A DNA stretch of 36,271 nucleotides from a virus (taxonomy: Duplodnaviria > Heunggongvirae > Uroviricota > Caudoviricetes), in the IMG/VR virus record IMGVR_UViG_2695420676_000012; one strand, written 5' to 3'. A program made the position numbers and the translations under genes. Every line of letters starts with the position of its first letter. Positions within the stretch are counted from its first letter, which is position 1. This document shows, one piece after another, positions 1,614-35,965 of this stretch. Below the pieces are notes generated by a model that had not been told where the DNA came from, did no database searches, and saw only the letters and a list, made by a program, of their open reading frames with translations.

Positions 1614-1653
1614 GCCCCTATCGTTATAATACGCGGTAGGGGCGTTTTTGTTT
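1614..1653 (+). terminator. terminator-like hairpin plus T-run
   Basis: 'gcccctA...Taggggc' inverted repeat followed by 'gtttttgttt'; overlaps the TTG-initiated extension of the recombinase ORF. Confidence 0.4.
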
Positions 1654-1662
1654 GGAAATGGT

Positions 1663-3342
1663 ATGAAAACTAAACTGTATTCGTATATTCGCTTCTCGTC
1701 TATGCGTCAGAATGATGGTTCGAGTTATGAACGACAAATCAGGATGGCGAGAGAGGTTGCGGCAAAGTATGACCTTGAACTGGTAAATGATTATCAGGAT
1801 CTGGGTGTATCTGCGTTTAAGGGTGCTAACTCCAAAACAGGGGCGCTATCTCGTTTCCTTGATGCAATAGGTAGATCCGTTCCTGTTGGTAGCTGGCTAT
1901 TCATCGAAAACTTGGACCGTTTATCCCGTGCCGATATTGTCAGTGCGCAGGAGTTATTCCTTTCAATCATCCGTAGGGGGATAACCATTGTTACTGGCAT
2001 GGATAACAAGATCTACTCGCTGGATACTGTTACCGCTAACCCGATGGACCTGATGTTCTCCATCCTTTTATTCATCCGTGGTAATGAGGAAAGCCAGACT
2101 AAGCGCAATCGTACTAACTCAAGCGCACTGATTAAGATTAAAGCCCATCAAGAAAATCCCCAGAATCCGGCAGTGGCAATCGAGGAAGTTGGAAAGAATA
2201 TGTGGTGGACTGATACCACTTCCGGTTATGTGTTGCCTCATCCTACATACTTCCCTGTTGTTCAGGAGATTGTGGAATTACGGAAGAATGGACGTTCAAC
2301 CGCCGAGATACTGGATCACCTTAACGAGACATATACACCGCCACCAGCGGTTAGTAATAAGAAGCATTCAAAATGGTCACGGGCAATGGTTGAAAGGTTG
2401 TTCCATACCCGCGCTTTGATTGGTATCAAGGAGGTCTCTGTCGATGGTGTTAACTATGAGTTAAAGGATTATTACCCTCGTGTTATTGATGATGCTACGT
2501 TCTATCACCTTAAGAAAAATATTGGTGCTAGAGCATGGAACTTTGGAGACAAGGAAGAAGTTAAACCGATCCCCCTGCTTAGTGGTATTGGCCTATTGAA
2601 ATGTGATCATTGCGGTTGCGCTATGGTTAAAGTGAAGGGAACGAACAAACGTTCTGACCAGTATCGTTATACATGTGATGCGACCCGTTCACGTAGACTT
2701 GATTGCGAGCATCCAAACTGGAGTTTTCGAGGTGATCAATTAGAGAAAGCTGTATTGCAATTGCTGGCTGATAAAATCTGGATTGCTGAGGACAAGGCTA
2801 ATCCGGTTCCGGCGTTGAAAGTACAGGTTGATGAAATATCACGCAAGATTGATAACCTGATTGCCCTTTCTGCTATGACAGGAGCAACGAAGGAGTTAGC
2901 CGATCAGATTACTACCCTCAATAGCGAGCGTGAAACACTCTACAATCAGATCAAGATGGCAGAAGAGGAAATGTATTCTGTGGACTCTCAAGGCTGGGAG
3001 AAGCTCGCAGAATTTGATTTAGAAGATGTTTATAACGAGGAACGACTAAAGGTCCGGTTTAAGATTAAGCAAGCTCTAAAGCGGATCGGGTGTAGCAGGA
3101 TTGACAGGAATAAAAACTTGTTTGTACTGGAATACATCGATGGAAAGACCCAGAGAGTTGTAATAGAAAATTCAAGAGGAACGAGGAAAGGACAAATCTT
3201 TGTCGATTTGAAAACTATCAATGATAGGCAGATTCTGGAGAGTAACGGGCTTGTTTTGCATCCATGTTTAGACATGCTGACAGATAAGAACTGGAAACCA
3301 GAAGAGGAAATACCAGGTCCATTACAGGAATTTGGAATTTAA
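1663..3342 (+). CDS. large serine recombinase (integrase/resolvase family)
   Basis: N-terminal resolvase catalytic motifs 'YIRFSSMRQ' and 'GVSAF...LFIENLDRLSR'; downstream Cys cluster 'CDHCGCAM...YRYTCD...LDCEH' (zinc ribbon) and coiled-coil segment; track ORF opens at 1648 with TTG, first ATG at 1663. Confidence 0.8.
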   Translation: MKTKLYSYIRFSSMRQNDGSSYERQIRMAREVAAKYDLELVNDYQDLGVSAFKGANSKTGALSRFLDAIGRSVPVGSWLFIENLDRLSRADIVSAQELFLSIIRRGITIVTGMDNKIYSLDTVTANPMDLMFSILLFIRGNEESQTKRNRTNSSALIKIKAHQENPQNPAVAIEEVGKNMWWTDTTSGYVLPHPTYFPVVQEIVELRKNGRSTAEILDHLNETYTPPPAVSNKKHSKWSRAMVERLFHTRALIGIKEVSVDGVNYELKDYYPRVIDDATFYHLKKNIGARAWNFGDKEEVKPIPLLSGIGLLKCDHCGCAMVKVKGTNKRSDQYRYTCDATRSRRLDCEHPNWSFRGDQLEKAVLQLLADKIWIAEDKANPVPALKVQVDEISRKIDNLIALSAMTGATKELADQITTLNSERETLYNQIKMAEEEMYSVDSQGWEKLAEFDLEDVYNEERLKVRFKIKQALKRIGCSRIDRNKNLFVLEYIDGKTQRVVIENSRGTRKGQIFVDLKTINDRQILESNGLVLHPCLDMLTDKNWKPEEEIPGPLQEFGI

Positions 3343-3415: not shown

Positions 3416-4414
3416 TTAAAGAGCCTCTAAAGGGCTTAAATCGAGTTCTAAGTCTTCCGGTGTTAAATCAGCTAACGGTGCATTCATCCACTGCGATAAA
3501 TCTCGTTCTATGTCTTCATCACTAATGTAGTTGTTCAGATTGATTGCGTTGGTATCATCAAAATACATTGGCTTAGATGGGTTGGTGTGGATGTATTCAT
3601 TGATGAATGATTTAACATCTTTCAGCTTGCTAATCGGTAGCGTTTCTGTGAATCCGCTATTCATTACCTTACGTGGGATTTTCTTGCCCTGAATATTCTT
3701 TTTAATCCCCATTTCTAAATCACCAGCTTTCCATCCAATGTTAAACAAATGTGAGCATTCAAAGGTGATTTTCTCGCTGGTGTGCTTCTGGTGTTCTCTT
3801 ACCCGTTGCATCGGATCTTTGCGAGTGGTAATTCCATATTTGAAAAACTTCTCGCCAACACGAATTAGATAAAAGTGCATAGGGCGCTGTGCAAACTTGT
3901 TTCTGATAACCTGTTTTCTACCATTCTGAATTGATTTAAGTACCCCCCTAACCAAAGGGCATGTTAACCCGCCTTGTCTGCGGTTATTGTGTAAATCACC
4001 TTTCTTGTGAATCTTTCCGTGGCACTTACAACGAAGAATTAGTTTAGTGTCAACACCCTGATAAGGTTCAGCCAGACCTAACACATCCCACCCTATCGGC
4101 TTGTAGAACTTGCGAGCGTTTTCTAAGTGTTCTTCTTCGGTAAATCTAAACTTCTTCTTAGGCGGTGATACTCTATCTTTGCCAGTAAACTGACCAGTTA
4201 GAACATGACTAATACATGGCGTTTTAACCTTTCCGTTAACTTCTATGCAAACTTTGGTGTTCTGGAATGGTTTCTTTACAGGAAGCACAAAACCACTGTA
4301 TAACCATCCATGCGCTTGACAAACTTTAATGATTCTGGTTTCATATTCGACCGGAGGGGTCGCACGTTTGCTTTTTGCGGTAAATTCGATATCCTTTGCT
4401 AAAGTAGTATTCAT
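3416..4414 (-). CDS. GIY-YIG-like nuclease domain protein (candidate free-standing homing endonuclease), 332 aa
   Basis: Central segment 'FYLIRVGEKFFKYGIT...RVREH...ITFECSHLF...LEMGIKKNI' resembles the GIY / YIG / Arg / FECS / Glu spacing of I-TevI-type nucleases; Cys/His-rich N-terminal part; SD GAGGA before ATG. Confidence 0.4.
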   Translation of the reverse strand: MNTTLAKDIEFTAKSKRATPPVEYETRIIKVCQAHGWLYSGFVLPVKKPFQNTKVCIEVNGKVKTPCISHVLTGQFTGKDRVSPPKKKFRFTEEEHLENARKFYKPIGWDVLGLAEPYQGVDTKLILRCKCHGKIHKKGDLHNNRRQGGLTCPLVRGVLKSIQNGRKQVIRNKFAQRPMHFYLIRVGEKFFKYGITTRKDPMQRVREHQKHTSEKITFECSHLFNIGWKAGDLEMGIKKNIQGKKIPRKVMNSGFTETLPISKLKDVKSFINEYIHTNPSKPMYFDDTNAINLNNYISDEDIERDLSQWMNAPLADLTPEDLELDLSPLEAL

Positions 4415-16980: not shown

Positions 16981-19900
16981 TTACCCTAATTTAGCTTCAA
17001 TTGCAGCAAGACGTTCACGAAGAAGTTTATTTTCTTCGCTCATTTCTTGGACCGCTTTAATTAAAAGCGCGTTCACTGCGGAGTTTGAAATTGTTAAAAT
17101 TTCTTCTGGGTTATCAAGACCACCAATTTTTGCGGTTTTAACAGCTTCCGGTAATACCTCTTGTAAATCCTGTGCGATAATACCAATCTCATGACCTATA
17201 ACTTCTCGGTCATTAAGAGATTTAACTTTATCGTAGGTTTTAACTTTGAGTTTATTTACCTTATCCACCGCATTTTCTTCGTAATCTTCAACATTAATTT
17301 TCAGACGACCATCGGAACGAATATAAACATCGTTAAAGTTACCATTACCAGGAGAATAGAAAGTACCATCATGATGAAATTCAAACACCGCTTGAGGATG
17401 ACCAGCCGCTGGCGATGCCTCCGCAGATCCAACGCGAATAATTGCTTGCCCCCAATTTTGAGGAACACGACGCATACCAAAATCGACGGCAGTTGTATAC
17501 CCTTGATTGGTGATTAAACTTCTTCCTTTAATAATTGGATAATAGCTATCTGGTCCTACATAACCATGATCGACAAATATCGGCGCTTCTAATCCCCATT
17601 GATCGCCCCAACCTCCAGATTGGCTAGCAGTCCAACGTTCACCATGAACATAGAATCGAACGTTATTGACATGAGTCATTTCGACACCTTTTGGACTTAG
17701 CGCGATATCACCCGCGTTTGTAATATTGATAGCAGCATTAGTAGCATAGCTATAGAACGCTAATCCATTATCAGCACCACCTTTACCGATATACCAGTTG
17801 TTATTATCAGCACAAGTACCCAGCAAATATATAGACGAATCACCCGTTTCGGCATTCATGACGATTGCGTCAGAACCACGATTAACTTTAAGTTTCCCGA
17901 AGAAGGTGTTTTTAATGGTATTATCACCCAATCGTTCAAATTCTGCGAAAAATCCTTTTGAGTCACGAAGACTTAAAACGTTATTTCGACCTGTATTGCT
18001 TGCCCCCCAATGGACGAGTTCCATATAGTCCATAGATTGACGAGAACCAGCTTTAAAGAAAAGGTTGTCTTCAAGACGGGTACTACCATCAATTCCGAGA
18101 TGCAAACAACGAGCGGTTGCAGTACCACCTAAATACAATCCACCGTCCGCAAAATCATAGCTGAATGGTCTGCGATTATTCCAACTACCAAAAGAATCTT
18201 TTAAATCGGTAGTAAGAATATGGAAGCTAGAACCATCATTGCGTAAAATCAAACCATAGTTACCACCTTTGACAGCCAAACGAGCATTTTCAGATAATGC
18301 AACTTCGCTATTCATTACAATTTTCTGGCCTTTACCGCCAGTAATATGCAATTCACCATCTTCAATCAGGTTTATAGAGTTTTGACCGTTATCGTTCCAC
18401 CAAATAAAATCTTTGGTTGTTCCATCACCAAAACCAAACCAACCATTACGAACATCTTGTCCAGTGCGATAATCCATGAAATTAAAATGACTTGATTCGT
18501 TTGGTCCTCGACGAATATCAATACCAGAATTTCCAGTAACACCGCCATCCAATGTTAATTTCTTGACATGTAACCCGGATGTTGCTGTCAGCAATAATTC
18601 CTGATTTGTATCTTCGTATCCAGTAGCAAGACGATATGCGTTATCATCAACTGTCTCATGCCAGATAGTGGCAGGAGCAGAACTACGGAAGCGACGCAAC
18701 ATTTTCTTAGCATTTGTTTGCTGTTCGTTCAAATGCTCAATGTCGTATTGGCCTTGATGGTTTCCAGCAAAATTTAACGTTCCACGGTTGCTAAAGTTAT
18801 TGAACGATGAAATGTTAAGAGCATCAAAAATTTCATCTGCAACAGGTTTTTCACCACCCAGATATTCAGGAGTATCCAACAGGTTTAAAGAAACACCACC
18901 GGAAGAAACTTGATATTCTGCTAAAACAAATCCTGTATGTGCACCGTAGTAAGCGTAAAGATCGTAATTGTCGCCATCGGTTGGAATAGCGCAAAAATGT
19001 TGTTCATGATGCCAAATAGTATAATACGCATTGAATACAACACCTTTCGGGCTATTGTTGCCGCATCGAATCACCAATTCGATAATATTGGCTTGTCCAT
19101 TATGTCCTACGTTATAACCGTTACCACCAACCAAACGGATCTTAGCCGTGCGACCGTGTTGTTGTGGCATTGTCAAAGTGCCTAGTTTAAACCAACCACC
19201 CTCGATACCAAAATTAAGCGTCTTCTGGAACAGTCGGTCAATTTCTGCTTTCGAATATGCGCCAATTTCAGCCGGAGTAGGTTTATCACCTTCATGATAC
19301 ATGCGGTGAGAATATGCCAAATGTCCCAATTCATCATAGCCGTATGTTCTTACCGTATGAACCGGATTAGACCCATAAGTGAACTCAAAACCACGAGCAT
19401 GATTAACGCCGGATGGGTGCGGAACATGCAAGATCATTGCAATATGACCCGCCAGGTCATTCATGCGAAATGCACCAAAGTAATCAAGATTAAGAGCACT
19501 CGGATCATCAAAAGGGTTTGCGGTCTTAGACAGCAAATAGCCATCAGTGCAAGTGTTTACGTGCTTTTTGATGTACTTGCCATCACTTGATCCATCGGCT
19601 GCATCAATACGGCTTTCTAAACGTGCAAGTTCGGAATCAGTGTAAGACTTGTTATTGTCAACTTTGCTATGAATTGCTGAATTTTTGGCTTCAACATCAC
19701 GGGTTAATGCTGCGACGTTATCCGCTGCCTCTTGCTTATTGGCTGCAATCACACCAGTAAGGTTATTGTAGGTGTCAGTTAACTGATTTTCCGCATAGGC
19801 GTGATTTGCTGCGATAGTGCGGTCAGTTTCTGCCTTAATCAAATCAACTTTGTCATTGATTGCTTTGTGATTGCTTACGATGGTTGCATCGGTACGGGAT

Positions 19901-20391
19901 TTAATATCATCAACTTTTTTATTGATGCGGGTGTCCAGTTCCTGAGTTGCTACAGCAGCCGCATTTTTATTAGCGTTGATGGTATCCGACAATTCAGCTT
20001 TAACACCAGCAAGATCGGAAGCAGCTTTATTTTTATTGGCCTCGATTGTCGCGTCGGTTTCGCGTTTAATTACATCAACTTTATTGTTAATTTCTGCGTG
20101 ATTTGCTGCGATGGTTGCATCAGTAGTTTGTTTAATTTCATCTACTTTAGCGTGAATATTGCGGCCATTTACTGCAATTGTGCTATCCAATTCTTGTTTG
20201 TTAGCATCAACTTTAGATTCTAGTGCCGCGTGAGTTTCAGGAGAAACAGAGATTTGAACTACTTCATGATCTCGGTCTTTGGTAAAAATAACATGGTCTT
20301 TAAGGTTGATTGCTACCTCACCGACCTGTAATTGTTCCGGCGTTGGCTTTTTGCCAGAAACATTAGTTCGTTTAAATTGGATTGATTGCAT
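16981..20391 (-). CDS. tail fibre with C-terminal intramolecular chaperone (peptidase S74-type) domain, 1136 aa
   Basis: C-terminal 'SDGRLK...GIIAQDLQEVLPEAV...LLRERLAAIEAKLG' matches the autoproteolytic chaperone module of T5 L-shaped fibre / endosialidase-type fibres; N-terminal ~22-aa 'KVD.IK..TDATI.ANH' repeats; SD 'GAGGTGA'. Confidence 0.8.
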   Translation of the reverse strand: MQSIQFKRTNVSGKKPTPEQLQVGEVAINLKDHVIFTKDRDHEVVQISVSPETHAALESKVDANKQELDSTIAVNGRNIHAKVDEIKQTTDATIAANHAEINNKVDVIKRETDATIEANKNKAASDLAGVKAELSDTINANKNAAAVATQELDTRINKKVDDIKSRTDATIVSNHKAINDKVDLIKAETDRTIAANHAYAENQLTDTYNNLTGVIAANKQEAADNVAALTRDVEAKNSAIHSKVDNNKSYTDSELARLESRIDAADGSSDGKYIKKHVNTCTDGYLLSKTANPFDDPSALNLDYFGAFRMNDLAGHIAMILHVPHPSGVNHARGFEFTYGSNPVHTVRTYGYDELGHLAYSHRMYHEGDKPTPAEIGAYSKAEIDRLFQKTLNFGIEGGWFKLGTLTMPQQHGRTAKIRLVGGNGYNVGHNGQANIIELVIRCGNNSPKGVVFNAYYTIWHHEQHFCAIPTDGDNYDLYAYYGAHTGFVLAEYQVSSGGVSLNLLDTPEYLGGEKPVADEIFDALNISSFNNFSNRGTLNFAGNHQGQYDIEHLNEQQTNAKKMLRRFRSSAPATIWHETVDDNAYRLATGYEDTNQELLLTATSGLHVKKLTLDGGVTGNSGIDIRRGPNESSHFNFMDYRTGQDVRNGWFGFGDGTTKDFIWWNDNGQNSINLIEDGELHITGGKGQKIVMNSEVALSENARLAVKGGNYGLILRNDGSSFHILTTDLKDSFGSWNNRRPFSYDFADGGLYLGGTATARCLHLGIDGSTRLEDNLFFKAGSRQSMDYMELVHWGASNTGRNNVLSLRDSKGFFAEFERLGDNTIKNTFFGKLKVNRGSDAIVMNAETGDSSIYLLGTCADNNNWYIGKGGADNGLAFYSYATNAAINITNAGDIALSPKGVEMTHVNNVRFYVHGERWTASQSGGWGDQWGLEAPIFVDHGYVGPDSYYPIIKGRSLITNQGYTTAVDFGMRRVPQNWGQAIIRVGSAEASPAAGHPQAVFEFHHDGTFYSPGNGNFNDVYIRSDGRLKINVEDYEENAVDKVNKLKVKTYDKVKSLNDREVIGHEIGIIAQDLQEVLPEAVKTAKIGGLDNPEEILTISNSAVNALLIKAVQEMSEENKLLRERLAAIEAKLG

Positions 20392-26338: not shown

Positions 26339-28246
26339 TTAGAACGATGTTACCCAGCTACGGCCTCTATTTGGGCGTCTGGCGATGTTTTGACGTTGCG
26401 GTCGTGTGATTGGCTTAGTTTCTTCGATTTGCTCGTCAGATTGCGATTCAGGAGCTTTTACGGGTTCTTCTTTAACGCTGTTTAAGCTGTCTTTCATTGC
26501 AATGAGTTTATCCCATGACATTTTTGAAAGGACGTAGCGAGAAGCAGCATAGCTATAAACCAGACAGTCGAGAGCCTCGTTTCGGGTACTACCTGGATTT
26601 TTCACCCAACGAACACCAGTAGTAGTACGCTTGATGGATTCACTCAAAAGCTGATCGAGATAATCATCAGGAACGGTTTCTGATATTTCTAAGCCAATAT
26701 GAGGATTATCTTTCAGGTTTCTAACCAGCATTTCACGAACAGCGGATTTACCAACGTTAACGCCCAGCATAAGCAATTCATGACCACCTGTGCGGGTAGG
26801 TTTAACCGGAATCACTGGAGCATTACCAGATGAACTACCTTTAATAGCGTGTAGGTTCTTCCACTTACCACAAATACGGTATCCGGCTTGAGTGAATCGA
26901 CCGTTTGATGTATCGAGGAAGCTGGCGAGCATTGGCACACGTTCACCATTAACGTTATAGAATTTGGTTTTCTTGAAGTTAACCAGACGATCCCATACAG
27001 GTGATTCGTATCGTTCACAGTTATGATCGTAAAAGCTACGGTGATCCAGAATGTAAACCTTATCTTTCGCTACACCTAAGATGGTAGATTCTGCGCGATC
27101 CAATTGCTGGTCAATTCCTGAGCACAAGAAAATCACGTCATCAGGGATATTCTCGATAGAAACATCTGTTTTGAGTTGTTCCAGTTCATTTGCTTCTACT
27201 GCCGTGTCCTGATCATCGTATACCTTGCCTAACACGGTGTTATAAAATGATTGTAAATCAAAGGATTGCCACGCATGACTAAAATCAACCACACAAGCGC
27301 GGATCGTGCTGAAAGGTGAATACAGACGGCTAATCCAGAATCCTGCTACTTCACTTTCACGGGTTGCTCTCCACTCGCCTTGCGCTACTGCCCTGATTCG
27401 TTCCCCTTCTGTCCATGCGTTCTTACAGTGGGGGCAAATATAACGAGCGGTATCAGGATCGGGTAAGTTCTTACCATCGATGTTACGCCATTCAAATTGA
27501 ACGTTTTCCCACTCGATCACCTGGTGTTCCCCGCAATGAGGACACGGAACAAAAAACATACGCATATCGCTTGATAACCATTGCTGGTTAATGCTTCCGA
27601 GCTTACTGGTCGGGGTACTGGATACGACTAATCGGCCTTCATCGCCAAAGGTAGTTAAACGGTTAGCAGCCAGTGCCACCGGATCACCTTCTTCTGAGGC
27701 TGTAGCAGCATCGATTTCGTCTAGTAGTCCGACCTTTGCGGTCTTACCACGTAGGGTCGATGGACTGGTTAGCGATACCATGTACAGGAAGTGATTCGTT
27801 TTTAGCTGTAGCTGGTTATTGTTGTTAACCGCATTGCGATCATTCTTGTCTGTAACCACGTCTTTTAATGCATCACATGCTTCGATAGACGGTCGGATCT
27901 TACCAGCGAGATATTGAGACATTTCTTTAGCGGTTGATTGTCCGATAATCATATTGCATGGATCGTTAGCCATCTGGTTAAACAGGATGCCGTTCAAGAT
28001 GGTAGTCTTTCCGATCTGCGCACTGGTCATCAGAACATACTTTTTCTTGTTCTCAAGGAAAGGAGCATCAATCATACCTTTCTGGAATGACAGCAATTTA
28101 ACTTTATCCCCAGCTTGAGGACCATCTACCAGCACCATATTAGCTTCGCACCATTCAGAAGGAAGGAGTTTAGGCGGTGGCGTAATATATTTGGCTGCAT
28201 TTCTGAGAATCTTTTTTAATTTGGCCTTATTAGAAATTAGTTTCAT
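26339..28246 (-). CDS. terminase large subunit, lambda gpA family, 635 aa
   Basis: Walker-A-like 'AQIGKTT'; 'PCPHCGEHQ' and 'YICPHCK' zinc-finger-like motifs; 'GIDQQLDR'; '[14 protein letters not shown]'; order and spacing match gpA as I recall it. Confidence 0.9.
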
Positions 28247-28333: not shown

Positions 28334-28936
28334 ATGCTAATTAATCAGCAACAAAGAGATGAATTAGAATTAGCCTTGTCTTGTACCGATCATGAATATC
28401 GTTTGCCAGTAAAACATAAGCACTTAAGGACTGATTACACAACATCCGGTTTTAGCCGTGAGGAAGCGAAAGAGATTTTAATAGAATTTTACCGTGATAA
28501 TGGTTATACAGACGTTCACAACTTCTTTAAGAAGCATAGAACATCACATACAGAGTTTCGGAGAGTCCGAGATTGGTTTGATTTTGATATCAAGCGTTAT
28601 TATCGCATTGATGACGGTCCTATCTATCGGTTGCAGTGGAAGCCGATCCGAGAAGTGTTGAAACAGAAGAGATTGAATCACGCTATTACACGCTATCGTA
28701 ACGAGGCTTTTAAGAAAGGCTATGGTGATACAAGGGAATTGTTTGTAGAACTCGCTAACGTGCGATATAGCCACTATTACAACGATCCTAAGTCCTTCTT
28801 CGAAGTGCTGCGCAAGGTTGATATAAGTCGGGGTACATACTATTCACGGTTGAAGAAGTACGGGATTAAGGCAGAGTTCTTTATGTCGGTTGACGATGGA
28901 GAACTTTTTCCTATAAAATGTAAGTCCTCTAAATAA
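28334..28936 (+). CDS. basic Tyr/Arg-rich protein with C-terminal HTH-like module, 200 aa
   Basis: C-terminus '[25 protein letters not shown]' resembles the two small HTH proteins at 28966 and 32781; SD 'AAGGGGG'. Confidence 0.5.
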
Positions 28937-28965: not shown

Positions 28966-29196
28966 ATGACTATGACTACTAAAGCTACTCGCGGTCGCCC
29001 TGCCCGTTTTAATCGTGAACAACTGGCAGCGATTGTAAAAGCGTACTATCAAGCACCGAAAGGTAAAGAGAACAAAGAACGGGTATTAAATGAGCATGGC
29101 TTATCTATAGCCCAGCTATACAAATCCCTACATAAAGTTGATTTGAAATTCTTTGTTCAGGTTGACGGTGAAATGGTAGAAGCAACAGGAATTTGA
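28966..29196 (+). CDS. small HTH DNA-binding protein (RP.KF.RE...HTH module), ~76 aa
   Basis: 'GRPARFNREQLAAIVKAYY...HGLSIAQLYKSLHK...VQV'; start at ATG with SD 'GGAGAAA' (track ORF opens with GTG at 28939); paralog of 32781-32960. Confidence 0.5.
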   Translation: MTMTTKATRGRPARFNREQLAAIVKAYYQAPKGKENKERVLNEHGLSIAQLYKSLHKVDLKFFVQVDGEMVEATGI

Positions 29197-29202
29197 TTCT
29201 CT

Positions 29203-29233
29203 AGGCCAATCCTTCGGGGTTGGCCTTTTTTAT
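29203..29233 (+). terminator. Rho-independent terminator
   Basis: 'aggccaa-tccttcgggg-ttggcct' followed by 'tttttat' immediately after the 28966-29196 gene. Confidence 0.6.
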
Positions 29234-29237
29234 ATCC

Positions 29238-29453
29238 GCTCAAAACTGAGCACATCTCTAAGTCATTGATTCTTCCGATGAGTCCAGATTTGGACTGATC
29301 TATAGATGCCCTCAAAACTGAGGAGATGTGCTTAAAGTTCAGCGTATCTATCTAAGTGGTTGATTCTTTCGAGAAATTCAAACTTGAATCAATCGGCGCA
29401 AAACTGCGCTCATCTCTAACCTATTGATTCTTCCGATAAATCCAAATCTGGAT
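29238..29453. repeat. three tandem ~65-85-nt units each carrying two conserved hairpins with compensatory substitutions (candidate structured RNA / protein-binding array)
   Basis: Hairpin 1: GCTCA-AAAC-TGAGC (29238), CCTCA-AAAC-TGAGG (29310), GCGCA-AAAC-TGCGC (29396). Hairpin 2: AGTCCA-GATT-TGGACT (29281), ATTCA-AACT-TGAAT (29376), ATCCA-AATC-TGGAT (29440). Conserved 'ttgattcttccgat' between them. Confidence 0.6.
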
Positions 29454-29465
29454 GCATCAGATACA

Positions 29466-29497
29466 AAAAAGCCCAGCGCAATTATGCGCCGGGCGAT
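29466..29497 (-). terminator. Rho-independent terminator for the minus-strand Rha-like operon
   Basis: Minus transcript 'gcccggcgc-auaau-gcgcugggc' followed by 'uuuuuu', directly after the 29501 stop. Confidence 0.5.
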
Positions 29498-29500
29498 TAA

Positions 29501-31355: not shown

Positions 31356-31386
31356 AGTGAATCAAGTAAGTTCACTATTATTTATA
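31356..31386 (-). promoter_or_regulatory. TATAAATA box followed by GTGAA/TTCAC hairpin upstream of the 30877-31335 gene
   Basis: Minus-strand 'TTATAAATAatAGTGAActtacttgaTTCACT...AGAGGA...ATG'; same architecture as 4414-4456 and 32508-32537. Confidence 0.4.
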
Positions 31387-31588
31387 AAGAGAAAATTCTT
31401 GTTATTATGAAAGGTGATTGTATTCAGTCGGGCAAAGCCCTCCTTCATGATTTGATTAAATTATGATCAAAACGAAGAAGTATCTTTAGAATATAATAAT
31501 CTTTCTTTTGGAGAAATAATAATCAGGAAGTAATTTAGCAACCGAAGGTTGCAATCCCGAAGGGATACCAATACCTTTCATGATCATT

Positions 31589-31846
31589 AAAGTGATCTAG
31601 AATCATCTAGTAACCAGTTAACTACTATTATCTTCAAAGTGATTATTACTATCTTTCTAGAATCAGTTAGTAACTAGTATTAAATCCCTTTCGAGAAAAT
31701 CCTTTCAGAAGTGATTCTCGATGCCACGCAGTGGCGTCGCAGACGTTTGAGAGTGAGCGAAGCGAGCGAGCAAACTAGTTAATTCCTTCTAAGACCATCT
31801 AGTATCATCTAGTTTAAATTAGTTGTTACTAGAAGTAATTGGTTAG
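31589..31846. repeat. CTAG-rich imperfect direct/palindromic repeats in an ORF-free region
   Basis: 'aaagtgat' x3 (31589, 31636, 31708); 'tctagaatca(t/g)(c/t)tagtaac(c/t)agt' x2 plus variant 'tctaagaccatctagtatcatctag'; palindromes 'agttaact', 'actagt'. Confidence 0.45.
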
Positions 31847-32017
31847 CGCTTCGCGCAGTCGGGCTACGCCCTCCTAATTATCTTTTTGGTTATTTGTTGT
31901 TTTTAGTTTTACACATGAGCGTAGCGAATGTGTTATATAATATCTATGCACGCCCGATCCCCCGCTTTTACCCCTCGCTAAGTTAATGTTTTATAAAGAG
32001 TTTTTATCACCAATCCT

Positions 32018-32216
32018 TTTCAGGGGCAAAAATGAGGGGCAAAAATTAGATTTTCAGGGGCAATTATTGGCATTTCAGGGGCAAAAATGAGGGGCAAAAT
32101 CACTGTTTCCCAGAATTTCAGGGGCAAAAATAGTAGGTTTCAGGGGCAAAAATGGGATAGTAGAATCTTGGGGATTTTATTCGGGGGCAAAAATTCAGAA
32201 TTTCAGGGGCAATTCC
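32018..32216. repeat. direct-repeat (iteron-like) array: 9 copies of (T)TCAGGGGCAA(A)AAT core
   Basis: 'GGGGCAA' at 32023, 32036, 32057, 32078, 32091, 32121, 32143, 32184, 32206; exact 27-nt duplicate 'tttcaggggcaaaaatgaggggcaaaa' at 32018 and 32073; spacings 13/21/21/13/30/22/41/22 nt. Confidence 0.8.
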
Positions 32217-32408
32217 CATCAAATATTTTGATAGAAAATTCTTGTATATTATTTAATCAAAAAATCACCAAAAAGTGGCGTAAGTTAATGATTTAAAAAG
32301 AATTGTCAAAAGGTCTCCGTGCTATAATAGGTTATAAAGGTTGATAATCCTGATCTACAATTTTCAAACAAAAATTTTGATAGTCATTTCTCGCTTAGGT
32401 CAAGTGCA

Positions 32409-32437
32409 TTGACAACTGTCAAGGATTATTTTATACT
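32409..32437 (+). promoter_or_regulatory. consensus sigma70 promoter with palindromic -35 (TTGACA-AC-TGTCAA)
   Basis: 'TTGACA' (32409-32414), 17-nt spacer, 'TATACT' (32432-32437); -35 lies in a perfect inverted repeat. Confidence 0.55.
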
Positions 32438-32507
32438 TTTTCTCACTGGTGGGGGTTGAAATTTTCTAAACAGTCCCCATATAGATGATAAGCAAGAATT
32501 TCCACGT

Positions 32508-32537
32508 TATAAATACATGTGTGAAATGATTGTTCAC
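32508..32537 (+). promoter_or_regulatory. TATAAATA box followed by GTGAA/TTCAC hairpin
   Basis: 'TATAAATA' 32508-32515, hairpin 'gtgaa-atgattg-ttcac' 32521-32537. Confidence 0.4.
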
Positions 32538-32574
32538 TTCTGAAAATCTCCTGATTCACTGCTAATTCATACAT

Positions 32575-32600
32575 CACTGGTTAGATATACAGTGCTTTTT
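32575..32600 (+). terminator. terminator-like hairpin plus T-run in the leader region
   Basis: 'cactg-gttagatata-cagtg' followed by 'cttttt'. Confidence 0.4.
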
Positions 32601-32658
32601 CGGTTGAATATTGTACGAATTGATTAATAATTAATCTTCTCTTTAGCAATTCGTGCTC

Positions 32659-32686
32659 CCACTGATCGGATATACAGTGGTTTTAC
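32659..32686 (+). terminator. terminator-like hairpin plus T-run
   Basis: 'ccactg-atcggatata-cagtgg' followed by 'tttta...gggttttc'. Confidence 0.4.
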
Positions 32687-32707
32687 AGGGTTTTCTGACA
32701 ATCATTT

Positions 32708-32747
32708 TATAAATACAAGTGTTCAGAGCGAAATGCTCTTTTTTTAA
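32708..32747 (+). promoter_or_regulatory. TATAAATA box followed by hairpin plus T7 run (attenuator-like) before the 32781 gene
   Basis: 'TATAAATA' 32708-32715; 'agagc-gaaat-gctct' 32725-32739; 'ttttttt' 32740-32746. Confidence 0.4.
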
Positions 32748-32780
32748 GAAATTATTAATCCACATGTGAGGAATCGACTG

Positions 32781-32960
32781 ATGGCTAGACCTGTTAAGTT
32801 CACTCGTGAAATGATTGTTGATATTGCTAAACGCTTTTACAGCGACACTGAGCGAGGCGGGGAAAACTTCTTTAAGAAGGAAGGAATTGATAGAAGCGGA
32901 TTCTACAAGCTAATGAAGAAATACGAAATTCAGGTAAAGATTAACGTTCAAGTTTGTTAA
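32781..32960 (+). CDS. small HTH DNA-binding protein, paralog of 28966-29196 (~59 aa)
   Basis: 'ARPVKFTREMIVDIAKRFY...GIDRSGFYKLMKKYEIQVKINVQV'; start at ATG with SD 'GAGGA' (track ORF opens with GTG at 32766). Confidence 0.5.
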   Translation: MARPVKFTREMIVDIAKRFYSDTERGGENFFKKEGIDRSGFYKLMKKYEIQVKINVQVC

Positions 32961-33074: not shown

Positions 33075-34037
33075 ATGTTATTTTCCGCTAACTTTTTCAC
33101 TAACGAAGTAACCAACGCTAAAGCAGTTATCAAATTTGGCACCGAAGCAAACAAGAAGATTCAGCCGAAAGTTGTTGCTCATGTTTCCTTTGCGCAGCAG
33201 AAATCCGCTTTCGCTGGCTTTAAAGCACATCGTGAAGCACTGATCGCGGCTGGCTTTGGTGTTGACGGTAAACTGCCTAACGGCATTCGTAAAGCAATCG
33301 ACCGCGTTAAACCTGCTAAAGACGTTGCAGTAGACCACATCGTTACTTTCACCGTTAAGAACTCTTCTGAACTGTTCCACCTAGTGATTGCTGGTGATAC
33401 TGCTATCGTTTCCGCTCCTAACATGGATTTTCAGGATACCGCTGATTGCAACATTACCTTTGGTCGTCGTAAAGAAGTTACCGGAAAAGCTAAACTGAAC
33501 TTCACCAAATCCGGCAATCCTTACTTTGCTGTATTCTTTAACAGCCACGCTACTGAGAAAGAAGTAGTAGAACTGGTTGCATATGAAGGTGAAGAAAAAG
33601 CACGTATTGAATCTTGCGACGCTTTCGTAGAACTGGAAGCACAGGTTAATGCTGTTTCTCCGGTTGCTGTTGAAGATCGTTTCTCTGCACTGGAAGCACA
33701 GATCGCAGAACTGAAAGCTGCACTGAAAGAAAAAGACCAGATCATCGAAGCACAGAAAGCTGAGATTGAAGAACTGAAAGCTAAAGAAGTTGCTCCGGTT
33801 GCTGTTGAAGCAGATCAGGAAGTTGAATCTAAAGACTTCTTTACTCAAGCGGTTGAATCTAAAGACAAACAAGCTCTTTGGATTCTGCTTAACGAAAAGC
33901 GTACTGTTGCAGACGTTGCAGAATGGAACAAATACCTGATTAAGAAAAATGGTTCTTCCGTTCAATTCATCGATTTAATGACAGTTAAAGTTTTTGATGC
34001 GTTCGAAAATGTGTTCGACGTTCGCAAAGCAGCTTAA
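33075..34037 (+). CDS. hypothetical abundant protein with coiled-coil and internal 'SPVAVE/APVAVE' repeat, 320 aa
   Basis: Strong high-expression codon bias (ctg, cgt, gct, gaa, aaa); SD 'GGAG'; downstream of the consensus promoter. Confidence 0.6.
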   Translation: MLFSANFFTNEVTNAKAVIKFGTEANKKIQPKVVAHVSFAQQKSAFAGFKAHREALIAAGFGVDGKLPNGIRKAIDRVKPAKDVAVDHIVTFTVKNSSELFHLVIAGDTAIVSAPNMDFQDTADCNITFGRRKEVTGKAKLNFTKSGNPYFAVFFNSHATEKEVVELVAYEGEEKARIESCDAFVELEAQVNAVSPVAVEDRFSALEAQIAELKAALKEKDQIIEAQKAEIEELKAKEVAPVAVEADQEVESKDFFTQAVESKDKQALWILLNEKRTVADVAEWNKYLIKKNGSSVQFIDLMTVKVFDAFENVFDVRKAA

Positions 34038-34063: not shown

Positions 34064-34405
34064 ATGGCAACTTTAAACGAAAAAGCACTGTCCCGTAAAA
34101 CTCTGAAAGAGAAAAACATGATTCTTTCTGAAACGCTAAAACAGACTAATGCTGAGTGTGAATTTTTGACCATTAAACTTTCGATTAAAGAGAAAGAATG
34201 CAATGAGCTAATGGAAAAGTACAAATCCTTACATGATAATTACGTGAAACTTGGTGAAGGATTTAAAGCCATGCAAGAAGACTACAAGAAATCATTGAGG
34301 GAACAGATTAAACTACTTGAAGAATTGAAAGGGTATAGAGAAAAGTCCGTTAAAGAAAAGAAAATACAGAAGATGAAAAACAAAGGATTGCGTCTTGTTG
34401 CTTAA
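34064..34405 (+). CDS. Lys/Glu-rich coiled-coil protein, 113 aa
   Basis: ORF with SD 'GGAGA'; heptad-like charged sequence. Confidence 0.55.
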   Translation: MATLNEKALSRKTLKEKNMILSETLKQTNAECEFLTIKLSIKEKECNELMEKYKSLHDNYVKLGEGFKAMQEDYKKSLREQIKLLEELKGYREKSVKEKKIQKMKNKGLRLVA

Positions 34406-35121: not shown

Positions 35122-35673
35122 TTAAGACACATCAAATTCATCGTCTTCTTCTGGTTCTTGTTCCGGTTCATCGATTAATGGTAATTCTTCTTCCTCGTCA
35201 TCGCCTAAATCCGCATTTTCGAACAAGTCCCCTACTTCATTTAAACGACGCTCGATGATCTCCCTTAGCTTATTCTTCAATGTTTTCTGATCAGTGGCAG
35301 ATTCGAGAATTTCTAAAGCGTCGATTGTGGCGATCTGCAAAATAGTCTGTTTCACCTTTCCGCAATATTCCGCTAGCTCCTGCTCAACATACCCGACCGG
35401 AATCAGGAGATTCATTGCTTCCTGGTTCTCTCGTTCGATAGCGTCAGCCTCGCCTCGCGCCTTGCGTAGTTTCTCTTGTTGGATTTGGGCTTGTACATCC
35501 ACTTCCCGCAAAGGATTGATTATGTTGGTGAGTATCCACTTAATGGCTAGATCGCGAGGACAACGGCGGGTATTAGAATTGAATGGCAAACCGCGTTCTT
35601 TCCATTTAGTGACAGCCGGAAGTGAATAACCATACATTTTCGATAATTCTGTTAGTGTAATTTCTGCGGACAC
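35122..35673 (-). CDS. Nu1-like small terminase subunit candidate (winged-HTH N-terminus, acidic C-terminus), 183 aa
   Basis: N-terminal 'LTELSKMYGYSLPAVTKWKERGLPF...LAIKWIL' resembles my recollection of lambda Nu1 'KKQLADIFGASIRTIQNWQEQGMPV...VIKWY'; size matches Nu1 (~181 aa); GTG start with SD 'GGAGGA'. Confidence 0.45.
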   Translation of the reverse strand: MSAEITLTELSKMYGYSLPAVTKWKERGLPFNSNTRRCPRDLAIKWILTNIINPLREVDVQAQIQQEKLRKARGEADAIERENQEAMNLLIPVGYVEQELAEYCGKVKQTILQIATIDALEILESATDQKTLKNKLREIIERRLNEVGDLFENADLGDDEEEELPLIDEPEQEPEEDDEFDVS

Positions 35674-35698
35674 TTTTTAATCCTCCATATTAGAAAAT

Positions 35699-35729
35699 TT
35701 GCGTAATGGTATTTAGATGAATTACGCAA
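35699..35729. promoter_or_regulatory. perfect 9-bp inverted repeat with 13-bp spacer (operator or packaging-site candidate)
   Basis: 'TTGCGTAAT-ggtatttagatga-ATTACGCAA' 26-56 nt upstream of the terS-like start. Confidence 0.35.
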
Positions 35730-35905
35730 TAAAACGCGCTGTAATGAGATGAGAGAGATCGGCGTGTGATAAGGCGTTGAAGGGTGTTTTAGCTCGTTGT
35801 GGAGTGTGCTGGAGGGCTTAACTAAACCGTTTTGAAAAATGCTCACGCACATCAAAAACCGGGGTGCCGAAAACTCGCTTTATTTCACTCGTGGAACAGT
35901 ACCTT

Positions 35906-35934
35906 TTGATTTTGTCAAGTCTTTTTTATAAATA
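35906..35934 (+). promoter_or_regulatory. sigma70-like promoter candidate with TATAAATA -10 region
   Basis: 'TTGATT' (35906-35911), 15-16 nt spacer, 'TATAAATA' (35927-35934); ATG at 35966. Confidence 0.4.
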
Positions 35935-35965
35935 ATCGAAAATATTTTTCACACGAGGGCAAATC

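Follow-up and report, generated by a model that had tools for sequence, protein, structure and literature searches.

A direct-repeat array that switches together with the N-terminal domain of the ORFan protein p320 in an E. coli prophage lineage: a candidate replication origin

The prophage and its early control region

The window, which is the whole stretch of 36,271 nucleotides that was analyzed, is a 36-kb temperate siphovirus-like Escherichia coli prophage. A large serine integrase gene is located at positions 1648 to 3342 on the plus strand, and the lysis, tail, head, portal, and gpA-type large terminase (TerL) genes occupy 4.4 to 28.2 kb on the minus strand, with TerL itself at 26339 to 28246. 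At the end of this late operon, a minus-strand gene (3416 to 4414) encodes a GIY-YIG-like protein of 332 amino acids, which contains the segment FYLIRV...FKYGIT, has a partial match to a PHROG "endonuclease" family, and is possibly a homing endonuclease. The Nu1-like small terminase (TerS) gene (35122 to 35673, minus strand) lies 7 kb from TerL and adjoins the right end of the prophage and attP; the gap between the two terminase genes holds three differently oriented operons. Nothing diagnostic of a cos-like structure was found upstream of TerS (35674 to 35965). The other genes of the genome encode HTH proteins and small ORFans; no CI-like repressor was identified among them, and no recognizable replication gene was found in the 36 kb beyond the candidate p320 described below.

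The repeat array under study is located in a 1.4-kb non-coding region (31366 to 32765) between divergent early operons. The leftward operon beside it encodes a 152-aa protein (p152), a 110-aa HTH protein (p110), and a Rha-like protein. The rightward operon begins with the gene for a 59-aa HTH protein (p59, MARPVKFTRE...; 32781 to 32960, plus strand), followed by that for a 320-aa ORFan (p320; 33075 to 34037, plus strand), about 850 bp downstream of the array, and that for a 113-aa coiled-coil protein (p113; 34064 to 34405, plus strand), whose position is variable in relatives (77 to 305 aa). The left half of the intergenic region (31366 to 31900) contains many closely packed small GC hairpins whose loops resemble tetraloops (GCAACCGAAGGTTGC, ATCCCGAAGGGAT, GCCACGCAGTGGC, GCGCTTCGCGC, and two copies of CAGTCGGGCnAnGCCCTCCT) and also carries TCTAGAATCAnnTAGTAAC-type repeats. 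This hairpin-rich stretch is conserved in outline in the related loci L123, L125, and L128 and could represent a structured RNA or additional sites for protein binding. Further short hairpins (GCTCAAAACTGAGC, CCTCAAAACTGAGG, GCGCAAAACTGCGC, GTCCAGATTTGGAC, TTCAAACTTGAA, and TCCAAATCTGGA), spaced by repeated ATCTCTAAG..TTGATTCTT segments, are present in the non-coding stretch from 29231 to 29500, between the gene for a 76-aa protein (p76; 28966 to 29196) and the Rha-like gene. In locus L058, a palindromic terminator, CCCCTGAAATTCAGGGGCAAAAAT, in which the array motif occurs, takes the place of this region.

The region surrounding the array was matched in 55 of 5426 complete E. coli genomes, chromosomal every time. 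Array-region queries matched 74 complete E. coli genomes, comprising 55 with the type 1 array or the cassette, 1 with type 2, and 18 with type 3 (types and cassette are described below); in all 74 the element was chromosomal, and in none was it on a plasmid. Wherever the host flank was read, the integration site was ycdX or hicB, as in the case of a complete prophage inside ycdX. A 6-kb remnant in E. coli rl0044 (NZ_CP121356, 2776280 to 2782400; locus L121), flanked by truncated patD-like and hicB genes, extends from the Rha gene to TerS and includes the array, p59, and p320.

No relative of the array region was found in the phage (INPHARED) and plasmid databases; plasmids gave zero matches, and the sole phage match was a 75-nt AT-rich segment (31451 to 31525) with 84% identity to an unannotated intergenic stretch in RB49-like (Krischvirus) T-even phages. 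Among cultured phages there was no close relative, and apart from the tail-fiber gene no cultured phage or plasmid matched. About 2.1 kb of that gene (16981 to 20391) is 97% identical to the long tail fiber distal subunit gene of the lytic RB49-like phage KFS-EC, and this level of sequence identity indicates that T-even-like phages and a temperate siphovirus-like prophage have recently exchanged DNA. Literature searches on ycdX prophages or iteron prophages returned no description of this element, and a search with the repeat motif returned unrelated primers only.

The repeat array, its variants, and its surroundings

The array (32018 to 32216, plus strand) is composed of nine direct repeats with the consensus (T)TCAGGGGCAAAAAT, the units lying at 32020 to 32033, 32033 to 32046, 32054 to 32067, 32075 to 32088, 32088 to 32101, 32118 to 32131, 32140 to 32153, 32181 to 32194, and 32203 to 32216. 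An earlier note, made from this sequence by itself, had described a nine-copy array in about 200 bp, and this is confirmed: nine GGGGCAA cores, all on the plus strand, start at 32023, 32036, 32057, 32078, 32091, 32121, 32143, 32184, and 32206, within 190 bp and against an expectation of about 0.01. Over both strands of the whole window, GGGGCAA occurs 14 times, compared with 3.0 ± 1.8 in dinucleotide-preserving shuffles (n = 100), none of which reached 14. The exact 27-nt duplicate reported in the note also holds, as TTTCAGGGGCAAAAATGAGGGGCAAAA is present in two identical copies at 32018 to 32044 and 32073 to 32099. The start-to-start spacings of the cores are 13, 21, 21, 13, 30, 22, 41, and 22 bp; four of the eight are 21 to 22 bp, in line with the note's remark that spacings are often near two turns, and the sum 13 + 30 bp and the 41-bp spacing are each about four helical turns. 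With 10.6 bp per turn, the nine copies fall mainly on the same side of the helix (R = 0.81). The note had also set the array apart from CRISPR, which is borne out by units of 12 to 15 nt separated by irregular gaps of 0 to 27 nt, as opposed to the regular 23- to 50-nt repeats of CRISPR, whose unique spacers are about as long as the repeats. Its suggestion that A-tracts should bend the DNA is supported by two measures that both peak at the array. A wedge model with Bolshoy/Trifonov parameters gives the array as the most curved 160-bp stretch in the 36-kb window (end-to-end/contour, 0.605; z = −7.8), and the 10.6-bp periodicity of A-tracts, which is parameter-free, is also maximal there (0.10 versus 0.012 ± 0.012).

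The 41-bp gap in the array is filled by a single degenerate or heterologous (type 2) repeat copy, GAATCTTGGGGATTTTAT (32163 to 32180, plus strand), a motif that makes up the entire array in L125, L128, and L144 to L151. An ORF across the repeats (32087 to 32296), which PGAP calls in a related genome as a 69-aa "hypothetical protein" (WP_024189125), was rejected as non-coding, its "protein" being an artifact of the repeat translated in shifting frames. RNA folding was weaker than in shuffles. An Rfam scan of the window and the intergenic region gave no match at gathering thresholds and only chance-level ones at E ≤ 10, and a tRNA scan of the window and the intergenic region found none.

The same spacing is kept in at least 17 related loci. 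In 16 fetched loci the array has essentially the same spacing pattern, and its copy number, a comparison also raised in the note, is six to nine among close relatives. Relatives retain the core AGGGGCAAAAAT even when the flanks have diverged beyond alignment, and in the alignment of close relatives core positions change about half as often as spacer positions (1.3 to 1.6% versus 3.0 to 3.4% of cells). In the distant relative L123, whose neighboring proteins are 40 to 68% identical and whose flanks are unalignable, seven exact copies of AGGGGCAAAAAT and one inverted copy are kept, with spacings of 22, 23, 19, 55, 20, and 33 bp. Because the cores of L123 are exact despite unalignable spacers, the repeats are probably sequence-specific recognition sites. 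As judged from sequence comparison, the array is a genuine, selected repeat array and a putative protein-binding site.

Three array sequence versions occupy the same position; the alternative versions were found through the genomic contexts of remote p320 homologues. Type 1, GGGGCAAAAAT, is present in the window and in at least 17 loci. Type 2, GGAATCT(A/T)GGGGATTT, is present in four to five copies at 22, 23, and 21 bp in L125, L128, and L144 to L151, including Salmonella. L125 and L128 (E. coli STEC1575) have five direct type 2 copies and an upstream inverted type 2 copy and contain no GGGGCAAAAAT, and eight more loci, one of them from Salmonella enterica, show this arrangement. Type 3, GTGTAGG, is present in L011, L066, L072, L089, and L108 in 6 to 10 direct copies, which are irregularly spaced and without two-turn phasing. 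Strong predicted curvature is seen in type 1, and type 2 arrays are only mildly curved. Sites of one type also occur at loci of another: type 1 arrays carry one type 2 copy, and two or three GTGTAGG sites are found around the promoter of cassette version B and in L123.

About 45 bp upstream of the direct array, the repeat is present in inverted orientation (31957 to 31976, minus strand) as GAGGGGTAAAA (31964 to 31976) plus GCGGGGGATC. In most relatives the inverted copy is an exact GAGGGGCAAAA, and in type 2 loci it carries the type 2 motif, CCGAATCCCCTTA. Between the inverted copy and the direct array lies a 32-bp AT-rich block (31979 to 32010; about 78% A+T), a candidate unwinding element, of which a 24-nt part (31979 to 32002) is repeated on the other side of the array at 32281 to 32304. 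A similar AT-rich block, AAGTTAnTGTnTTATAAAGAGTTTTTAT, is found at the equivalent place in type 2 modules, and no counterpart was seen in type 3 modules. The stretch from 32220 to 32260 is 85% A+T but is located inside the exchangeable cassette described below. Further upstream, a promoter-like element on the plus strand (31908 to 31941) points into the array, with an extended −10 sequence, TGtTATATAAT, at 31931 to 31941; it was read from the sequence and went undetected in a consensus promoter scan. The element contains the palindrome ACACAT/ATGTGT (31911 to 31916 and 31928 to 31933), coincides with a relaxed DnaA-box-like sequence, TTTTACACA, at 31907 to 31915, and is kept in type 1 modules only, not in types 2 and 3. 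A scan for DnaA boxes, IHF sites, and GATC gave no consistent pattern: DnaA-like sequences were relaxed or matched at 8 of 9 positions and were confined to type 1 loci (31907 and 32756), none were present in type 2 and type 3 arrays, and no IHF consensus sites were found.

The right end of the array runs into an exchangeable non-coding cassette of about 500 bp (32198 to 32708, plus strand), which is type A in the window. It carries rightward promoters (TGcTATAAT at 32320 to 32328 and TTGACA-17-TATACT at 32409 to 32437) and palindromes of the form ATCAAA-N3-TTTGAT. The cassette has at least two unrelated versions, A and B, followed in each case by the conserved p59 and p320 genes, and cassette A is found downstream of all three array types, between the matched array and the N-terminal domain (NTD) of p320. 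A conserved intrinsic terminator (32725 to 32745, plus strand) lies just upstream of the p59 gene, and its stem and loop vary among relatives with the pairing preserved. Operator-like repeats differ by cassette version (ATCAAA-N3-TTTGAT in type A, three copies of GTGTAGG in type B, and four copies of GCGGGGA in L147). The cassette also includes a leader or ncRNA of roughly 290 nt that ends at the terminator before the p59 gene, and a minus-strand terminator is present within the cassette region at 32266 to 32280. As a whole, the stretch from 32198 to 32765 looks like an immunity or attenuation module without a protein gene of its own.

Association of array type with the p320 N-terminal domain

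p320 is laid out as an NTD of about 190 residues (33075 to 33644), a coiled coil (about residues 199 to 237), an acidic linker, and a swappable C-terminal domain (CTD) that ends ...RKAA. The NTD of close type 1 loci is 96 to 98% identical to that of the window, and that of the type 1 locus L123 is 51% identical. In type 2 loci, the NTD was undetectable by tblastn and is a distant homologue (MKNVKIWFYDN...); in type 3 loci, an unrelated domain (MKNSKRITFNL...) is carried on the same architecture of coiled coil, acidic linker, and CTD. Among the neighboring proteins compared, only this domain tracks the array type. Array and NTD types were matched in at least 11 distinct haplotypes in which the intervening DNA is exchanged, and the association between them is perfect. 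TerL (whose identity within type 1 ranges from 55 to 100%), the TerS N terminus, Rha, p200, p76, p110, p152, the p59 alleles, the cassette, and the p320 CTD, which occurs in two forms independent of NTD type, all reassort independently of the array.

Since the repeat sequence and the p320 NTD switch together in three versions, p320 is the probable partner of the array. The most economical reading is that the NTD would be a specificity determinant recognizing the repeats, and the array is most likely a docking site for p320. Genetic linkage and cassette replacement at conserved flanks could explain part of the association. The earlier note had proposed that such an array binds multimers of one protein; the kept core, the diverging spacers, the copy number of six to nine, and the co-switching domain support this proposal well, with the identity of the binder being predicted by comparison.

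p320 is an ORFan for which 12 clusters were found among 1.8 billion representatives. Searches with p320, its type 2 and type 3 counterparts, and all neighbors against Pfam, PHROG, NCBIfam, and PDB sequences gave no informative match, structure models of p320 were of low confidence, and fold searches returned noise. As there is neither a family match nor a confident fold, the prediction that p320 binds DNA draws on covariation alone. The p320 C termini read ...RKAA, ...REAA, or ...YAYAA, and the variable downstream proteins (77 to 305 aa) all end in P(T/V)LR(L/I)VA or GLRLVA. These ssrA-like tails suggest, from their sequence, stability that may be controlled by ClpXP or a shared docking peptide, and p113 is a possible partner of p320. 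The idea that p320 might be an unconventional small terminase was set aside, as its CTD type is independent of TerL type.

Candidate functions of the array

We tentatively interpret the array as a set of p320 iterons and, most likely, as the phage replication origin, with p320 as the putative initiator. The iterons would be phased, same-orientation sites bound by the p320 NTD. p320 would oligomerize through its central coiled coil and assemble on six to nine sites that are mostly two helical turns apart on curved DNA, and it may also bind the upstream inverted copy; the result would be a nucleoprotein complex with wrapped DNA at the early control region. p320 would act as a lambda-O-like initiator whose NTD reads the iterons, recruitment of the host replication machinery would fall to its exchangeable CTD, possibly helped by the variable protein encoded downstream, and the adjacent AT-rich block would be the opening site. 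Direct binding by p320, its oligomerization on DNA, and origin activity are what we infer from the comparisons above. An origin is favored because the genome contains no other recognizable replication gene, because p59, p320, and p113 occupy the cro-O-P position of a lambdoid early rightward operon, and because the division of p320 into a specificity NTD and an exchangeable CTD parallels that of lambda O. It is further favored by the iteron traits of the array, namely, two-turn spacing, a G-run with an A-tract, a predicted bend, copy-number variation, an inverted copy, and an AT-rich flank. Iteron origins are expected to have at least three direct repeats at integral helical turns, and these are present in the nine-copy array and in type 2 arrays at 22, 23, and 21 bp; of the host-factor sites that plasmid iteron origins have (DnaA boxes and IHF sites), nothing was found beyond the relaxed or 8-of-9 DnaA-like sequences of type 1 loci. 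The lambda origin is not known to need such sites either. A replication initiator was one of the binders that the earlier note had listed, and on sequence grounds an origin, although unproven, is the most plausible of the candidate functions, with p320, which the note did not name, as the likely binder.

The O/ori iterons of lambdoid phages (lambda and Stx phages) are likewise directly repeated sites about two turns apart, numbering four to six compared with six to nine here, and their repeats similarly combine G-tracks (G-runs) with A-tracts in intrinsically bent DNA with AT-rich flanks (PMC7466680). By analogy with lambda O, the putative initiator p320 appears to pair a specificity NTD with a separately exchangeable CTD. 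The genes of both proteins are located in an early rightward operon after a small HTH gene, and lambdoid origins too have specificity types that are exchanged as mosaic modules. In contrast, each lambda iteron is a palindrome within the O gene, whereas those described here are non-coding, asymmetric, and about 850 bp upstream of the p320 gene. p320 has a long coiled coil and shares no sequence similarity with lambda O (no Pfam or PHROG match), and unlike the lambdoid gene order, no homologue of P, DnaC, or a helicase loader follows it. Iteron plasmid origins (P1 oriR, F oriS, pSC101, R6K gamma, RK2 oriV; Rep_3 type) resemble the locus in their direct repeats at 21 to 23 bp upstream of the gene for the cognate protein (here a putative one), in an extra inverted copy near a promoter, which is the classical autoregulatory operator arrangement, and in copy-number variation. 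They differ in that p320 has no Rep_3 or winged-helix Rep match, that neither DnaA boxes in a consistent pattern nor IHF consensus sites were found at the locus, that the element is a phage that integrates, and that the iterons are separated from the putative rep gene by a promoter cassette of 500 bp and another gene.

The main rival to the origin reading is a regulatory role, in which p320 would be a Mu-repressor-like switch regulator that coats the array and represses or activates the early promoters, so that the motif types would be immunity types. We consider this possible but doubtful. The Mu repressor acts at many sites and has an N-terminal DNA-binding domain, a coiled-coil oligomerizer, and a protease-sensitive C terminus. 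From what is generally known of Mu and its O1 to O3 operators, the likeness lies in many short sites between divergent early transcription units and in a protein with an N-terminal DNA-binding domain (putative in p320), a coiled coil, and a C-terminal tail that is possibly a ClpXP signal. The array is indeed flanked by divergent early operons, with strong rightward promoters just downstream of it, in type 1 modules the inverted copy is just downstream of the promoter-like element, p320 has a domain-coiled coil-tail architecture with an ssrA-like end (...RKAA or ...YAA), and the genome has no identified CI-like repressor. However, the promoter cassette beside the array is exchangeable and common to all three array/NTD types, and because of this p320 specificity appears uncoupled from the cassette promoters; this argues against control of those promoters by the array and weakens the operator interpretation. 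In addition, with the type A cassette the sites are 100 to 300 bp upstream of the promoters rather than over them, and the types do not share the promoter-like element found upstream of the array. p320 also shares no sequence similarity with the Mu repressor, whose sites, unlike those here, overlap the main promoters, and its gene, rather than being a divergent repressor gene, belongs to the rightward operon, where strong promoters and a terminator precede it. The earlier note had named a partition or regulatory protein as a further candidate; the regulatory half of that suggestion stands as the rival just described, and the partition half fares poorly, as set out below.

It is improbable that another phage protein (p59, p76, p200, the 110-aa HTH protein, or the Rha-like protein) binds the array and that the link to p320 merely reflects genetic linkage. 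p59, p76, and both halves of p200 (28334 to 28936) are paralogues (BLASTP E values, 2e-7 to 6e-4) made of a small HTH domain whose N terminus bears an (A/G)RP arm, and none of the three proteins matches Pfam or PHROG. They presumably resemble minor-groove-arm HTH domains of the Hin/Sf6-gp1 type, a design that would fit a site in which an A-tract follows GGGGC, and p59 is the gene nearest to the array. Nevertheless, both p59 allele classes are found with each of the three array types, so that covariation argues against p59 as the binder; p200 is 87% identical in a type 2 phage but 46% in the type 1 locus L123, p110 is absent from several type 1 loci, and Rha varies between 46 and 100% identity among type 1 loci. 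The small HTH proteins, which the earlier note had singled out for binding assays, are therefore disfavored, as their alleles do not follow the motif type. A packaging site (cosB- or pac-like) for the Nu1-like small terminase, another of its suggestions, is very unlikely. The phage does have gpA-type large and Nu1-like small terminases, bent and repeated sites are typical of terminase recognition regions, and the repeated units and DNA bending here recall the lambda cosB R-sites bound by Nu1. The array, however, adjoins neither terminase gene: TerS is 3 kb away and TerL 4 kb away, operons of opposite orientation intervene, and the sites number nine compared with three in cosB. Furthermore, the TerS winged-HTH region (residues 1 to 70) does not track the repeat type, being 87% identical in the type 2 locus L128 but 54 to 64% in type 1 relatives, and the p320 CTD does not follow TerL. 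We give equally little weight to the possibility that the repeats act as RNA, in the form of an unstructured multi-site transcript of the CsrB/TRAP/HutP type that binds or titrates a protein. Rfam gave no match, shuffles folded more strongly, types 2 and 3 do not retain the upstream promoter, a match to HutP was within noise (model pLDDT, 55), and helical phasing, predicted curvature, and the co-switching inverted copy are features of DNA. The least probable of these functions is partition, with the array as a centromere-like site of a prophage kept outside the chromosome. In its favor, plasmid centromeres of type Ib/II consist of short direct repeats arrayed upstream of the par operon, and the capsid has distant relatives in VP882 and phiHAP-1, which are linear-plasmid prophages. 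Against this, all 74 matched complete E. coli genomes carry the element in the chromosome, a large serine integrase is present and the element is integrated in ycdX or hicB wherever the flank was read, and no family search found a Walker-type ATPase adjoining the array.

What is new here is the three-way modular pairing of an array sequence with an uncharacterized protein family, a variant of the iteron/initiator (or operator/regulator) theme. A bolder and rather unlikely extension is that p320 and its two alternative forms constitute an unrecognized family of phage initiators (or master switches) with interchangeable DNA-specificity domains mounted on one shared coiled-coil/CTD scaffold, for which the heterologous sites would serve as decoys or in cross-talk. 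If so, at least three orthogonal origin or "incompatibility" types would exist in one E. coli/Salmonella prophage lineage, and the heterologous sites would not be relics but would let co-resident or superinfecting relatives sense, titrate, or repress one another. If p320 is only a regulator, the array would be an ordinary operator array of unusual size. Roughly 1% of complete E. coli genomes carry the lineage, which also occurs in Salmonella and has no characterized member. It lacks recognizable replication or immunity genes, and the array-ORFan pair would provide a first testable handle on where its replication starts or how it is switched. Three natural site/protein pairs, orthogonal to one another and built on a common scaffold, would also offer a compact system for studying the exchange of DNA-binding specificity by mosaic recombination, and such pairs may be usable as orthogonal origins or regulators in engineering.
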